DNA of 64,000 nt from Escherichia coli (GTDB lineage: Bacteria > Pseudomonadota > Gammaproteobacteria > Enterobacterales > Enterobacteriaceae). Where the stretch lies: assembly GCF_003334315.1 (NCBI RefSeq), contig NZ_QOWR01000006.1, one strand, 5' to 3'. How positions within the stretch are numbered: the first letter of the stretch is position 1; each line of letters begins with the position of its first letter. The position numbers and the translations under genes were made by a program. The notes below the pieces were generated by a model. That model had not been told where the DNA came from, made no database searches, and was given only the letters and a program-made list of their open reading frames with translations. Of the stretch, positions 5,283-26,518 are shown piece after piece.

Positions 5283-5380
<98 letters not shown>

Positions 5381-18154: not shown

Positions 18155-18238
18155 GCCTGATGCGACGCTGGCGCGTCTTATCAGGCCTACGCAGGGGTAG
18201 AACCGTAGGTCGGATAAGGCGTTTACGCCGCATCCGAC
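18155..18238. repeat. BIME: two inverted REP elements
   Basis: gcctgatgcgacgctggcgcgtcttatcaggcctac and gtaggtcggataaggcgtttacgccgcatccgac. Confidence 0.85.
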
Positions 18239-20446: not shown

Positions 20447-20540
20447 TGCCTTCGCTGAGGGTGCCGGTCTGGCACCCTGACTTGCAACTCCCGCCGAAAT
20501 CCTGCAAAGTCTGCCTGCAAGTCTGACAGGGCAACTATTT

Positions 20541-21110
20541 ATGAAACGACTCATTGTAGGCATCAGCGGTGCCAGCGGCGCGATTTATGGCGTGCGCTTA
20601 TTACAGGTTCTGCGCGATGTCACAGATATCGAAACGCATCTGGTGATGAGCCAGGCAGCGCGCCAGACCTTATCCCTCGAAACGGATTTTTCTCTGCGCG
20701 AAGTGCAGGCATTAGCCGATGTCACGCACGATGCGCGCGATATTGCCGCCAGCATCTCTTCCGGTTCTTTCCAGACGCTGGGGATGGTGATTTTACCCTG
20801 TTCAATCAAAACCCTTTCCGGCATTGTCCATAGCTATACTGATGGCTTACTGACCCGTGCGGCAGATGTGGTGCTGAAAGAGCGTCGCCCGTTGGTGCTC
20901 TGCGTGCGTGAAACACCATTGCACTTAGGCCATCTGCGTTTAATGACTCAGGCGGCAGAAATCGGTGCGGTGATTATGCCTCCCGTTCCGGCGTTTTATC
21001 ATCGCCCGCAATCCCTTGATGATGTGATAAATCAGACGGTTAATCGTGTTCTTGACCAGTTTGCGATAACCCTTCCTGAAGATCTCTTTGCCCGCTGGCA
21101 GGGCGCATAA
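20541..21110 (+). CDS. ubiX: Flavin prenyltransferase UbiX, 189 aa
   Basis: GISGASGAIYG flavoprotein motif; recognised sequence. Confidence 0.95.
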   Translation: MKRLIVGISGASGAIYGVRLLQVLRDVTDIETHLVMSQAARQTLSLETDFSLREVQALADVTHDARDIAASISSGSFQTLGMVILPCSIKTLSGIVHSYTDGLLTRAADVVLKERRPLVLCVRETPLHLGHLRLMTQAAEIGAVIMPPVPAFYHRPQSLDDVINQTVNRVLDQFAITLPEDLFARWQGA

Positions 21111-21118
21111 CTCCGCTG

Positions 21119-21141
21119 TTGCCCTGTTTCAGGGCAATTTT
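21119..21141 (+). terminator. Intrinsic terminator downstream of ubiX
   Basis: Hairpin ttgccct-gtttc-agggcaa followed by tttt. Confidence 0.65.
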
Positions 21142-21291
21142 GCAACCGCGATCAAATCCTCGACATTTTGTTTCTGCCATTCAATCGAAACGCTGCGATT
21201 CAACCGCTATACCTGCTATCTTCAACTTCAGGACAATAATGCAACGTCTTATTAACATATTTAACGTTGAATGTTACTGTTGTCGTCAAGA

Positions 21292-21307
21292 TGGCATAAG
21301 ACCTGCA
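21292..21307 (+). promoter_or_regulatory. sigma54 (-24/-12) promoter candidate for argT
   Basis: tGGcat-aagac-ctGCa: GG and GC are spaced exactly as in the TGGCAC-N5-TTGCA consensus, ~70 bp upstream of the argT ATG; argT is a known Ntr-regulon gene. Confidence 0.65.
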
Positions 21308-21375
21308 TGAAAGAGCCTGCAAACACACAACACAATACACAACATAAAAAAGCCATTTTCACTTGAGGGTTATGT

Positions 21376-22158
21376 ATGAAGAAGTCGATTCTCGCTCTGT
21401 CTTTGTTAGTCGGTCTCTCCACAGCGGCTTCCAGCTATGCGGCGCTACCGGAGACGGTACGTATCGGAACCGATACCACCTACGCACCGTTCTCATCGAA
21501 AGATGCTAAAGGTGATTTTGTTGGCTTTGATATCGATCTCGGTAACGAGATGTGCAAACGGATGCAGGTGAAATGTACCTGGGTTGCCAGTGACTTTGAC
21601 GCGCTGATCCCCTCACTGAAAGCGAAAAAAATCGACGCTATTATTTCGTCGCTTTCCATTACCGATAAACGTCAGCAGGAGATTGCCTTCTCCGACAAGC
21701 TGTACGCCGCAGATTCTCGTTTGATTGCGGCCAAAGGTTCACCGATTCAGCCAACGCTGGATTCACTGAAAGGTAAACATGTTGGTGTGCTGCAGGGATC
21801 AACCCAGGAAGCTTACGCTAACGAGACCTGGCGTAGTAAAGGCGTGGATGTGGTGGCCTATGCCAACCAGGATTTGGTCTATTCCGATCTGGCTGCAGGA
21901 CGTCTGGATGCTGCGTTACAAGATGAAGTTGCTGCCAGCGAAGGATTCCTCAAGCAACCTGCTGGTAAAGATTTCGCCTTTGCTGGCTCATCAGTAAAAG
22001 ACAAAAAATACTTCGGTGATGGCACCGGTGTAGGGCTACGTAAAGATGATGCTGAACTGACGGCTGCCTTCAATAAGGCGCTTGGCGAGCTGCGTCAGGA
22101 CGGCACCTACGACAAGATGGCGAAAAAGTATTTCGACTTTAATGTCTACGGTGACTGA
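21376..22158 (+). CDS. argT: Lysine/arginine/ornithine-binding periplasmic protein ArgT, 260 aa
   Basis: Signal peptide plus recognised sequence; paralogue of the adjacent hisJ. Confidence 0.95.
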
Positions 22159-22216
22159 TACGTCGCTGGGAAGCTGTACCTGATGGAATGATCATCATGG
22201 TGCACGCCAGGTTTGT

Positions 22217-22233
22217 TGCACTATCGTGGTGCA
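22217..22233 (+). promoter_or_regulatory. NtrC-like enhancer palindrome upstream of hisJ
   Basis: tgcactatcgtggtgca resembles the NtrC consensus TGCACCA-N3-TGGTGCA; lies ~100 bp upstream of a weak -24-like TGGCAC at 22315. Confidence 0.4.
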
Positions 22234-22378
22234 TTGAAATGCATACTTAAGCATTTTTAATGAAAAATAATACGTCTAACGGGGCGGGATATTTTGCCTT
22301 GATGGTCAATTTTATGGCACGATAAGTGTAACAAACCTGTAAATATTCCCTATAAAAAGACTGTCAGTTGAGGACATT

Positions 22379-23161
22379 ATGAAAAAACTGGTGCTATCGC
22401 TCTCTCTGGTTCTGGCCTTCTCCAGCGCAACTGCGGCATTTGCTGCGATTCCGCAAAACATCCGCATCGGTACCGACCCGACCTATGCGCCATTTGAATC
22501 AAAAAATTCACAAGGCGAACTGGTTGGCTTCGATATCGATCTGGCAAAGGAATTATGCAAACGCATCAATACGCAATGTACGTTTGTCGAAAATCCGCTG
22601 GATGCGTTAATCCCGTCCTTAAAAGCGAAGAAGATTGACGCCATCATGTCATCGCTTTCCATTACGGAAAAACGTCAGCAAGAAATAGCCTTCACCGACA
22701 AACTGTACGCTGCCGATTCTCGTTTGGTGGTGGCGAAAAATTCTGACATTCAGCCGACAGTCGAGTCGCTGAAAGGCAAACGGGTAGGCGTATTGCAGGG
22801 CACCACCCAGGAGACGTTCGGTAATGAACATTGGGCACCAAAAGGCATTGAAATCGTCTCGTATCAGGGGCAGGACAACATTTATTCTGACCTGACTGCC
22901 GGACGTATTGATGCCGCGTTCCAGGATGAGGTCGCCGCCAGCGAAGGTTTCCTCAAACAACCTGTCGGTAAAGATTACAAATTCGGTGGCCCGTCTGTTA
23001 AAGATGAAAAACTGTTTGGCGTAGGGACCGGCATGGGCCTGCGTAAAGAAGATAACGAACTGCGCGAAGCACTGAACAAAGCCTTTGCCGAAATGCGCGC
23101 TGACGGTACTTACGAGAAATTAGCGAAAAAGTACTTCGATTTTGATGTTTATGGTGGCTAA
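22379..23161 (+). CDS. hisJ: Histidine-binding periplasmic protein HisJ, 260 aa
   Basis: Signal peptide plus recognised sequence. Confidence 0.95.
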
Positions 23162-23185
23162 TCGCCATCGGTGAAAGAAAGCCCG

Positions 23186-23209
23186 CTCCCTTCGGGTAAC
23201 CGGAGGGAG
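23186..23209 (+). other. Stable stem-loop in the hisJ-hisQ spacer
   Basis: ctcccttcgg-gtaa-ccggagggag: 10-bp stem with one G-U pair and no following U-tract, so not a classic terminator. Confidence 0.55.
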
Positions 23210-23250
23210 ACAAGAGGCGGTAATTCACCACACACGACAGGACAGGCAGC

Positions 23251-23937
23251 ATGTTGTATGGGTTTTCAGGTGTTATTTTACAGGGTGCGCTCGTCACGCT
23301 GGAGCTGGCTATCAGCTCTGTAGTGCTCGCTGTAATCATCGGTTTAATTGGCGCTGGCGGTAAGCTCTCGCAAAATCGGCTTTCGGGGCTGATTTTCGAA
23401 GGGTACACCACGCTGATTCGTGGCGTGCCGGACTTAGTGTTGATGCTGCTGATTTTCTACGGTTTGCAGATTGCGCTAAACACGGTGACGGAGGCGATGG
23501 GCGTCGGGCAGATTGATATCGATCCGATGGTCGCTGGTATTATCACTCTCGGTTTTATCTACGGTGCTTATTTTACCGAAACGTTCCGTGGTGCTTTTAT
23601 GGCAGTGCCGAAAGGACATATAGAGGCGGCGACGGCGTTCGGTTTTACTCGTGGGCAAGTGTTTCGGCGGATCATGTTTCCGGCGATGATGCGTTACGCC
23701 CTGCCAGGCATTGGCAACAACTGGCAGGTGATCCTCAAATCTACCGCACTGGTTTCGTTACTCGGCCTGGAAGATGTGGTCAAAGCCACCCAACTGGCAG
23801 GCAAAAGTACCTGGGAACCGTTCTATTTCGCCATCGTCTGTGGCGTGATTTACCTGGTTTTCACCACTGTTTCCAATGGTGTGCTGCTGTTCCTTGAGCG
23901 CCGCTACTCCGTGGGTGTGAAGAGGGCTGACCTGTGA
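23251..23937 (+). CDS. hisQ: Histidine/Lys/Arg/Orn ABC transporter permease HisQ, 228 aa
   Basis: Recognised sequence; multi-TM permease. Confidence 0.95.
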   Translation: MLYGFSGVILQGALVTLELAISSVVLAVIIGLIGAGGKLSQNRLSGLIFEGYTTLIRGVPDLVLMLLIFYGLQIALNTVTEAMGVGQIDIDPMVAGIITLGFIYGAYFTETFRGAFMAVPKGHIEAATAFGFTRGQVFRRIMFPAMMRYALPGIGNNWQVILKSTALVSLLGLEDVVKATQLAGKSTWEPFYFAIVCGVIYLVFTTVSNGVLLFLERRYSVGVKRADL

Positions 23938-24650
23938 TCGAAATCTTACATGAATACTGGAAACCGCTGCTGTGGACCGACGGTTATCGCTTTACTGGTG
24001 TGGCGATCACTCTGTGGCTGCTTATTTTGTCGGTAGTGATAGGCGGAGTCCTGGCGCTGTTTCTGGCGATTGGTCGTGTCTCCAGTAATAAATACATCCA
24101 GTTTCCAATCTGGTTATTTACCTATATTTTTCGCGGTACGCCGCTGTATGTTCAGTTGCTGGTGTTCTATTCCGGCATGTACACGCTTGAGATTGTTAAG
24201 GGAACCGAATTCCTTAACGCTTTCTTCCGCAGTGGCCTGAACTGTACCGTGCTGGCGCTGACGCTTAACACCTGCGCTTACACTACCGAGATTTTTGCTG
24301 GGGCAATCCGTTCGGTTCCGCATGGGGAAATTGAAGCCGCCAGAGCCTATGGCTTCTCGACTTTTAAAATGTATCGTTGCATTATTTTGCCTTCTGCGCT
24401 GCGTATTGCGTTACCGGCATACAGCAACGAAGTGATCCTGATGCTGCACTCTACTGCGCTGGCGTTTACGGCCACTGTGCCGGATCTGCTGAAAATAGCC
24501 CGCGATATTAACGCCGCCACGTATCAACCTTTTACCGCCTTCGGCATTGCCGCGGTGCTCTATTTAATCATCTCTTATGTCCTGATCAGCCTCTTTCGCA
24601 GAGCGGAAAAACGCTGGTTGCAGCATGTGAAACCTTCTTCAACGCACTGA
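23934..24650 (+). CDS. hisM: Histidine/Lys/Arg/Orn ABC transporter permease HisM, 238 aa
   Basis: GTG start overlapping the hisQ stop; recognised sequence. Confidence 0.95.
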
Positions 24651-24657
24651 GAATACG

Positions 24658-25431
24658 ATGTCCGAGAATAAATTAAACGTTATCGATTTGCACAAACGCT
24701 ACGGCAAACATGAAGTGCTGAAAGGGGTCTCACTGCAAGCGAATGCCGGAGATGTAATAAGCATCATCGGATCGTCGGGATCGGGGAAAAGTACCTTTCT
24801 GCGCTGCATTAACTTCCTCGAAAAACCGAGTGAAGGGTCGATCGTGGTCAATGGCCAGACGATCAATCTGGTGCGCGACAAAGACGGTCAACTCAAAGTC
24901 GCCGATAAAAATCAACTGCGCTTACTGCGCACACGCCTGACGATGGTATTCCAGCACTTCAATCTCTGGAGCCATATGACGGTGCTGGAAAACGTCATGG
25001 AAGCGCCGATTCAGGTGTTGGGCCTGAGCAAGCAGGAAGCGCGCGAGCGGGCGGTGAAGTATCTGGCAAATGTCGGGATAGACGAACGTGCGCAGGGGAA
25101 ATATCCGGTGCATCTTTCCGGCGGTCAGCAACAGCGTGTTTCTATCGCGCGGGCGCTGGCGATGGAACCGGAAGTTTTACTGTTTGATGAACCTACCTCG
25201 GCGCTCGATCCTGAACTGGTAGGCGAAGTGTTGCGTATTATGCAGCAACTGGCAGAAGAGGGGAAAACCATGGTGGTAGTGACTCACGAAATGGGCTTTG
25301 CTCGCCATGTTTCTACTCATGTCATTTTCCTCCATCAGGGGAAAATAGAAGAAGAGGGCGCGCCGGAGCAGTTATTTGGCAACCCGCAAAGCCCTCGTCT
25401 GCAACGGTTCCTTAAGGGATCGCTGAAATAA
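24658..25431 (+). CDS. hisP: Histidine/Lys/Arg/Orn ABC transporter ATPase HisP, 257 aa
   Basis: Walker [13 protein letters not shown] signature LSGGQQQRV, Walker [12 protein letters not shown]. Confidence 0.97.
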
Positions 25432-25437
25432 TTTCCT

Positions 25438-25467
25438 CTCCGGTGGCTAACGCTGCCGGAGTATTTT
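25438..25467 (+). terminator. Probable terminator downstream of hisP
   Basis: ctccgg...ccggag stem with a long loop, followed by tatttt; the structure is not ideal. Confidence 0.45.
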
Positions 25468-25627
25468 CATGGGGAATTTGCGAGTCAGCTTCCGCTGAAA
25501 TGTAAAAGTTACAGTCCGCTAAAAATACTTCTGAATTCGCTGTCCAAAGATAAAAACTGCCTGCTGCATTGGGTGTTAATCGTGGTTATTGTCGCGTCAT
25601 CTTAAATTTGAGGGGTGACGGAACGCC

Positions 25628-26518
25628 ATGACAATATCGACAACTTCCACGCCGCATGATGCGGTATTTAAATCTTTTTTACGCCATCCAGACACCGCGC
25701 GGGATTTTATTGATATTCATCTTCCCGCGCCGCTGCGCAAACTGTGTGATTTAACGACGCTTAAACTGGAACCAAACAGTTTTATTGATGAAGACCTGCG
25801 GCAATATTATTCCGACCTCTTGTGGTCTGTGAAAACGCAGGAGGGAGTGGGTTATATTTATGTAGTGATAGAGCACCAAAGTAAGCCGGAAGAATTAATG
25901 GCTTTTCGCATGATGCGTTATTCCATTGCGGCAATGCAAAACCATCTTGATGCGGGCTATAAAGAGCTTCCATTGGTGATCCCGATGCTGTTTTATCATG
26001 GTTGCAGAAGTCCTTATCCTTATTCACTCTGCTGGCTTGATGAATTTGCCGAGCCTGCTATAGCCCGCAAAATATATTCATCGGCTTTTCCGTTGGTGGA
26101 TATTACCGTGGTGCCGGATGACGAGATTATGCAACACCGCAAAATGGCGCTGTTGGAGTTAATTCAGAAACATATTCGTCAGCGCGATCTGTTGGGATTA
26201 GTCGACCAAATTGTTTCGCTGCTAGTTACAGGGAACACTAATGACAGACAGCTAAAAGCCCTGTTTAATTACGTATTACAAACAGGGGATGCCCAGCGTT
26301 TTCGTGCATTTATTGGTGAGATAGCGGAACGCGCACCACAAGAAAAGGAGAAACTGATGACCATTGCTGACAGATTACGTGAAGAAGGCGCAATGCAGGG
26401 CAAACACGAAGAAGCCCTGCGTATTGCTCAGGAGATGCTGGATAGAGGTTTAGACAGAGAGTTAGTTATGATGGTGACCCGACTTTCACCAGACGATCTT
26501 ATCGCGCAAAGCCACTAA
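25628..26518 (+). CDS. rpnB: Rpn-family recombination-promoting nuclease RpnB (YfcI), 296 aa
   Basis: Recognised sequence of the YhgA/transposase_31-like PD-(D/E)XK family. Confidence 0.85.

Follow-up and report, generated by a model that had tools for sequence, protein, structure and literature searches.

The spacer between hisJ and hisQ in Escherichia coli carries a stable hairpin that is real and functional-looking, ordinary in kind, and already published as a prediction. We lean, with some reserve, towards the view that this hairpin is a cis-acting element of the argT-hisJQMP mRNA, which would act as a barrier to 3'-to-5' exonucleases and so preserve hisJ mRNA. This reading, which covers both the exonuclease block and an altered hisJ:hisQMP mRNA ratio, is drawn from anatomy, conservation and analogy. 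It relies on a stable, non-random structure devoid of a U-tract, on a position that is kept while the stem sequence turns over with pairing maintained, on the better fold of the sense strand, and on the content of the same slot in Salmonella and Citrobacter freundii, and its complex, namely a REP, an element with a proposed role in stabilising upstream mRNA. ABC binding proteins must outnumber their translocators although both are encoded in one operon, the excess being 10- to 200-fold in type I importers (PMC12094219), and intercistronic hairpins are among the classic answers to this need.

The window, i.e., the whole 64-kb stretch of DNA that was analysed, is from E. coli and carries on its + strand the block ubiX, argT, hisJ, hisQ, hisM and hisP. 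The features considered here are as follows.

22379-23161, + strand: hisJ, histidine-binding periplasmic protein (ORF list; K-12 b2309), the upstream gene and the candidate for protection.
23162-23250: hisJ-hisQ spacer, 89 nt.
23170-23229, + strand: predicted extended structure around the hairpin (spacer MFE -33.2 kcal/mol, z = -3.3).
23186-23195, + strand: hairpin 5' arm CUCCCUUCGG (fold), its first base 24 nt past the hisJ stop codon.
23196-23199, + strand: hairpin loop GUAA (fold), not conserved.
23200-23209, + strand: hairpin 3' arm CCGGAGGGAG (fold), followed by ACAAGAGGCG, without T.
23225-23250, + strand: C/A-rich element and hisQ Shine-Dalgarno region, target of the GcvB R1 seed (PMC9299463 and duplex prediction).
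23251-23937, + strand: hisQ, first permease gene (ORF list, K-12 annotation), in the downstream, lower-expressed part of the operon.
25438-25461, + strand: canonical terminator-like hairpin with T-run after hisP, at the operon end (terminator scan), taken as a contrast case.

The spacer is identical to that of K-12 MG1655, whose RefSeq annotation places no feature within it, and the hisJ-hisQ region was found at 95% identity or more in 5426/5426 complete E. coli genomes. In a single one of these genomes (E. coli TUM14697, NZ_CP128888.1, L084:1962-3335), the IS4-like element ISEc13 interrupts the hairpin within its 5' arm, at the equivalent of window position ~23192, and splits hisJ from hisQMP.

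The preliminary description had proposed a stable 10-bp hairpin at this place, which the fold, the shuffles and its rarity in the window all bear out. Positions 23186-23209 (CUCCCUUCGG-GUAA-CCGGAGGGAG) form 10 contiguous pairs (7 G-C, 2 A-U and 1 G-U), with an MFE of -18.6 kcal/mol and 0.92 of the ensemble in that structure. The z-score is -4.23, none of 200 dinucleotide shuffles folding equally well. Only 20 uninterrupted + strand hairpins at -15 kcal/mol or better occur across the whole 64-kb window, so that finding one within an 89-nt spacer is unexpected by chance. The strongest palindrome of the window lies elsewhere, at 60732-60767 (GTTCGACCAGTCAGCATATTTGCTGACTGGTCGAAT; -28.6 and -26.4 kcal/mol for the + and - strands, respectively), and has no T-run on the + strand. 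The GUAA loop is formally GNRA, as had been pointed out, but it is replaced by GCUA in another E. coli (L003) and by the 6-nt AAGAGC in E. albertii; since the loop varies even within Escherichia, its type carries no weight and is probably irrelevant.

Around the hairpin, the fold adds an inner flank helix, which pairs GCC (23181-23183) with GGC (23216-23218), and a predicted outermost helix, devoid of covariation support, which pairs GGUGAA (23170-23175) with UUCACC (23224-23229). The inner helix covaries, being GCC/GGC in Escherichia and Citrobacter versus GUG/CAC in Enterobacter (RNAalifold pairs 34-74 and 35-73). Farther downstream, at 23234-23257, a weak ACGACA/UGUUGU pairing would loop in the hisQ ribosome-binding site and AUG, and most species have it in an ACAG/CUGU version. 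This pairing is not necessarily selected as structure, as the conserved Met-Leu-Tyr codons constrain its 3' half.

Conservation of the hairpin was then considered beyond E. coli. Species-representative genomes were scanned with HisQ, every spacer being extracted from the resulting 80 Enterobacteriaceae loci, and six further genera (Erwinia, Pantoea, Cronobacter, Buttiauxella, Cedecea and Trabulsiella) were fetched separately. A stable G+C-rich hairpin was present at the hisJ-hisQ position in all 86 of the 86 Enterobacteriaceae/Erwiniaceae species examined. Short spacers (57-100 nt) all hold such a hairpin (63/63), 8-24 nt past the hisJ stop, with a stability of -14 kcal/mol or better in all but one and between -14 and -28 kcal/mol in almost all; the separately fetched genera follow the same pattern. 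Whole-spacer z-scores were negative in 26 representatives out of 26. By contrast with this constancy of position, the apical hairpin varies in length (20-35 nt, or ~115 nt with REPs) and in distance to the ATG (21-60 nt, 41 nt in the window), and its stem differs between clades: CUCCCUYC in Escherichia and some Citrobacter, CCCCUCCC in Enterobacter, Lelliottia, Leclercia and Kosakonia, CCAUCGCGCGC in Klebsiella and Raoultella, CCCAUCG... in Kluyvera, and unrelated stems in Atlantibacter, Pluralibacter, Superficieibacter, Cronobacter, Trabulsiella and others.

Covariation was counted inside clades only, in Klebsiella-type and Enterobacter-type alignments, because a MAFFT alignment of the Escherichia and Enterobacter clades set their stem registers one column apart. 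In the alignment of Klebsiella, Raoultella, Kluyvera and Pseudocitrobacter, a 12-bp helix had 93.5% of its cells paired, versus 29-51% in slid controls, and both sides had changed in 7 of its 12 pairs. The Enterobacter-clade stem was 95% paired and nearly invariant. When the Escherichia and Enterobacter stems are aligned by sequence, their registers are i+j = 58 and 59, respectively (window 23185-23209), and this one-column offset suggests that the helix may have slipped within its C-run/G-run arms during evolution. The covariation does not discriminate between an exonuclease barrier and other roles that require a hairpin.

Several spacers depart from the common layout. That of Pantoea sp. A4 (171 nt; L086:1330-1470) contains a very long composite palindrome (-71.6 kcal/mol, z = -7.9). 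That of 'Citrobacter freundii' M-21 (289 nt; L056:2212-2500) contains an Atlantibacter-type hairpin and then ~190 nt of structured sequence that is not REP-like; judging from its HisJ and HisQ identities, this strain label may be wrong. In Erwinia billingiae (L085:1399-1500), the hairpin is followed by GUUUUG and resembles a weak terminator, and the Buttiauxella hairpin has a U-containing tail.

The strand on which the hairpin folds best was also informative. The sense strand was the more stable one in 37 spacers, versus 10 for the antisense (Wilcoxon p = 4e-5, for spacers that are not phylogenetically independent), and sense stems contained 31 G-U pairs. For the E. coli hairpin, the values were -19.9 kcal/mol (sense) versus -13.6 kcal/mol (antisense). 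This bias towards the sense strand makes RNA the probable functional form, i.e., a transcript-level element on the mRNA strand.

Several known classes of element resemble this hairpin in part. Its G+C-rich stem-loop is that of an intrinsic (Rho-independent) terminator; this class was rejected, as the 10 nt past the stem hold 0 T and as the stem is never followed by a T-run in the 63 short orthologous spacers. The preliminary description had noted the missing U-tract and deduced that termination would hardly be efficient. Both points held: efficient intrinsic termination is unlikely when no U-run follows the stem, and the scan that calls the hisP terminator skips the hairpin on the + strand. 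Being extragenic, palindromic and devoid of a U-tract, the hairpin also recalls REP / BIME elements, which were rejected on copy number and consensus. Indeed, a 41-nt query around the hairpin found a median of 1 place per genome (5426 E. coli genomes, E up to 10), and the REP consensus CTTATCCGGCCTAC, searched with up to 2 mismatches, has 5 sites in the window and 0 in 23162-23250. The REP-like units of the window itself, found at 5322-5358, 18177-18218 and 55975-55988 with 1 mismatch to CTTATCCGGCCTAC, form two inverted, BIME-like pairs and one single unit (5 matches versus 0.3 expected). The hairpin belongs to no Rfam family, a cmscan of 20500-26000 (E up to 10) returning only a chance match at 22225-22243. 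Two published descriptions do apply to it: a stable stem-loop without downstream uridines (Dar and Sorek, 2018), and a stable stem-loop between a 5'-proximal binding-protein gene and the translocator genes (Wu et al., 2022).

That the hairpin might act on RNA polymerase rather than on exonucleases is the strongest of the other explanations, although we consider it unlikely. The hairpin would then pause or partly terminate polymerase, intrinsically with low efficiency or with Rho/NusG, so that fewer polymerases reach hisQMP; protection of the upstream RNA would be a by-product, as in the 'dual' element proposed for REP325. Wu et al. (2022) indeed read stem-loops after binding-protein genes, that of hisJ included, as internal terminators, REP325 is reported to be both a partly Rho-dependent terminator and a stabiliser, and the tails in Erwinia billingiae and Buttiauxella are nearer to weak terminators. 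The tails of E. coli and of the short spacers, devoid of T and of T-runs, respectively, nevertheless argue against it, as does the reporter system of Wu et al. (2022), where a stem-loop deprived of its U-tract failed to stop transcription (PMC9045158). A C-rich, G-poor rut region, sought just downstream, was absent: 23210-23290 holds 16 C and 24 G, the 78-nt C-minus-G value downstream of the hairpin is negative (12th percentile of the operon), and C/A-rich sequence is limited to one 14-nt stretch. With G exceeding C across the 80 nt past the hairpin, there is no rut-like signature or bubble. Nor, with bicyclomycin, did Adams et al. (2021) list a Rho region at the hisJ-hisQ junction, and a Rho-dependent model was rejected on these two grounds. 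The same dataset places bicyclomycin-sensitive (Rho) regions at K-12 2423859, inside hisP, and at 2427233, inside argT, on the minus strand.

The slot occupied by the hairpin can be filled in another way. Long spacers (138-190 nt) were found in 16 loci, from 2 Salmonella subspecies and 14 Citrobacter, and the hairpin slot of Salmonella and of the C. freundii complex is taken by one REP unit or by a pair of them. Alignment showed that ~115 nt with one or two REP units replaces the 24-nt hairpin between flanks common to E. coli and to the REP-filled spacers, namely TAAUC... and AAAGCCC on the left, and AAAAGAGGC...CACCACACACGACAGGACAGGC-AUG on the right. Matches to the insert of Salmonella lie in unannotated intergenic places of E. 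coli genomes, with a median of 7 and a maximum of 19 per genome, so that the insert is a dispersed repeat. The Citrobacter strains R56, Awk4, NCU1 and FP75 retain a simple hairpin of the Escherichia type, which makes the simple hairpin the more widespread state and the REP one interchangeable filling. Every related genus keeps some hairpin, and REPs are interchangeable with it; at the level of sequence comparison, this indicates that the selected feature would be the structure and not the REP sequence. In the account given in PMC3184786, the hisJ-hisQ spacer of Salmonella typhimurium is where REPs were first described (Higgins, 1982; Stern, 1984), and a role of REPs in upstream mRNA stability was proposed for this very spacer (Stern, 1988, as cited there).

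From a mechanistic point of view, the sequence of events would be as follows. The hairpin would block PNPase and RNase II, RNA polymerase itself not being stopped. The hisQMP part of the message would be lost through endonucleolytic cleavage in the single-stranded spacer or, alternatively, through GcvB-triggered repression and decay at the adjacent C/A-rich site, or through occasional premature termination. Exonucleolytic decay would run back from the end left by the lost hisQMP part and stall at the hairpin, so that a translatable hisJ (or argT-hisJ) message would persist and help to keep the binding protein in large excess over the membrane permease. This contribution may be quantitatively small: Stern et al., in 1988, are said to have found that the hisJ/hisQ difference in Salmonella is mostly translational, with a modest effect of the REPs on hisJ.

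The preliminary description had already suggested that the hairpin could shield the hisJ message and shift the hisJ:hisQMP ratio towards hisJ. The idea fits the positional conservation with compensatory changes, the sense bias, the REP-filled slot and the class of U-less protective stem-loops (Dar and Sorek, 2018); the barrier effect is the part that we infer. In E. coli, U-less stem-loops keep PNPase and RNase II from degrading transcripts (Dar and Sorek, 2018, PMC6061677), and REP325 (yjdMN) stabilises its upstream gene (bioRxiv 10.64898/2026.03.23.713779). Among the curated Term-seq 3' ends of Adams et al. (2021), which cover LB at two densities and M63 glucose and were searched by gene name and coordinate prefix (24258xx-24260xx), none lies at the hairpin (K-12 ~2425958, minus strand). 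The operon's own terminator, after hisP, is likewise absent, no entry falling between K-12 2418606 and 2427825 on the minus strand in the lists consulted, so that the missing 3' end at the hairpin carries little weight. In the searchable literature, we found no direct report of an E. coli 3' end, coverage step or half-life difference at the hairpin.

The spacer also contains a regulatory site. The sRNA GcvB represses hisQ via its R1 seed, in a hisJ-hisQ intra-operon fusion (Miyakoshi et al., PMC9299463). Our duplex prediction was confined to R1 (GcvB nt 62-92), the full-length sRNA having given a meaningless duplex, and it pairs this region at 23225-23250 with -23 kcal/mol, ~15 nt 3' of the hairpin. 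Elsewhere in the operon, the argT 5' UTR contains a very strong 3' end in the Term-seq data of Adams et al. (2021) (K-12 2427825, minus strand; window ~21342), 34 nt upstream of argT and directly past the C/A-rich tract ACACACAACACAAUACACAACAUAAAAAAG, which looks like the GcvB target region of argT.

Proximity to this site raises another explanation, in which the hairpin and outer helices would act as a scaffold that presents, or partly sequesters, the C/A-rich enhancer/GcvB site and the weak hisQ ribosome-binding site, setting a low hisQ translation uncoupled from the ribosomes that terminate on hisJ. The 15-nt spacing, the overlap of the predicted outer helix with the start of the C/A-rich element, and the retention of the flanks (AAAGCCC...GAGGC) even where REPs substitute for the hairpin speak for it. 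We nevertheless hold it to be improbable, more so than an effect on polymerase: the apical hairpin is free in sequence, length and ATG distance, a latitude more in keeping with a generic barrier than with a precise scaffold, the outermost helix has no support from covariation, and Klebsiella and Kluyvera have a short C/A-rich tract.

Last, a DNA-level element (cruciform or protein-binding palindrome) or a minus-strand terminator of antisense transcription is very improbable: BIMEs do bind IHF and gyrase (PMC3184786) and the A-rich 5' flank GAAAGAAAG (23172-23180) amounts to a U-rich tail on the minus strand, but the sense strand folds better, its G-U pairs being A-C mismatches in antisense RNA or in a cruciform, the A-rich flank is missing in Klebsiella, Kluyvera and other clades, and both neighbouring genes lie on the + strand, with no convergent promoter detected. 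Owing to this A-rich flank, the minus strand reads as an extended stem followed by CUUUCUUUC, an arrangement that resembles an intrinsic terminator and whose conservation stops at the limits of the Escherichia, Citrobacter and Salmonella clade.

A broader proposal can also be put forward, which we regard as tentative and rather doubtful: the hairpin and the C/A-rich GcvB site might form a two-part intra-operon switch, conserved across Enterobacteriaceae, that insulates HisJ (and ArgT), with recruitment of REPs. By pairing at 23225-23250, GcvB would switch hisQMP off and destabilise it, and the hairpin would halt the ensuing 3'-to-5' decay, thus insulating HisJ/ArgT synthesis from sRNA control of the permease. 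The slot would need merely 'a hairpin', and a selfish REP would have been recruited into a pre-existing site in Salmonella and Citrobacter, which would help explain where REPs are retained.

As far as we found, the points that appear new in the searchable literature are a position conserved across 86 species while the stem turns over, a bias towards the sense strand, the exact replacement of the hairpin by REPs and the adjacency to a verified GcvB site. These comparative points are useful but incremental, and they open no new question, the function of the class being broadly understood.

The element and the general idea are already in the literature through its listing as a predicted internal terminator. 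Table S3 of Wu et al. (2022; Microbiol Spectr, PMC9045158) gives the exact sequence CTCCCTTCGGGTAACCGGAGGGAGA after hisJ, at -19.8 kcal/mol and as a prediction only, together with entries for potF, oppA, araF, mglB, livK, xylF, pstS, malE and others. The frame is the same, i.e., control of the stoichiometry of binding protein to translocator; however, the experiments of that study were conducted in Ruminiclostridium, where the active elements have U-containing tails and terminate transcription, whereas the E. coli entries are predictions. The stem-loops of Dar and Sorek (2018) are likewise stable, have no uridines after the stem and are expected to block PNPase and RNase II. They differ in lying at transcript ends with a rut just downstream, whereas the hisJ-hisQ hairpin is intra-operon and no C>G region follows it.

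The closest relative is the REP pair of Salmonella typhimurium, which occupies the orthologous slot between conserved flanks, forms a stable palindromic RNA without a U-tract and has a proposed role in hisJ stabilisation; it is, however, ~115 nt long and dispersed, whereas the hairpin of E. coli spans 24 nt and occurs once per genome. The intercistronic malE-malF REPs, reportedly the subject of work by Newbury et al. in 1987, and REP325 are also intra-operon palindromes past a highly expressed gene, raising the upstream:downstream mRNA ratio. Unlike the hisJ-hisQ hairpin, which is single-copy and whose role is predicted, they are repeated elements, REP325 being moreover a partly Rho-dependent terminator. 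Finally, the gltI-sroC-gltJKL spacer is another binding-protein/permease spacer of an amino-acid ABC operon in the GcvB regulon, which is said to be processed into distinct RNA species, SroC reportedly being a sponge of GcvB. SroC is a stable sRNA with its own terminator, whereas in the hisJ-hisQ spacer it is a GcvB site that lies 3' of the hairpin.
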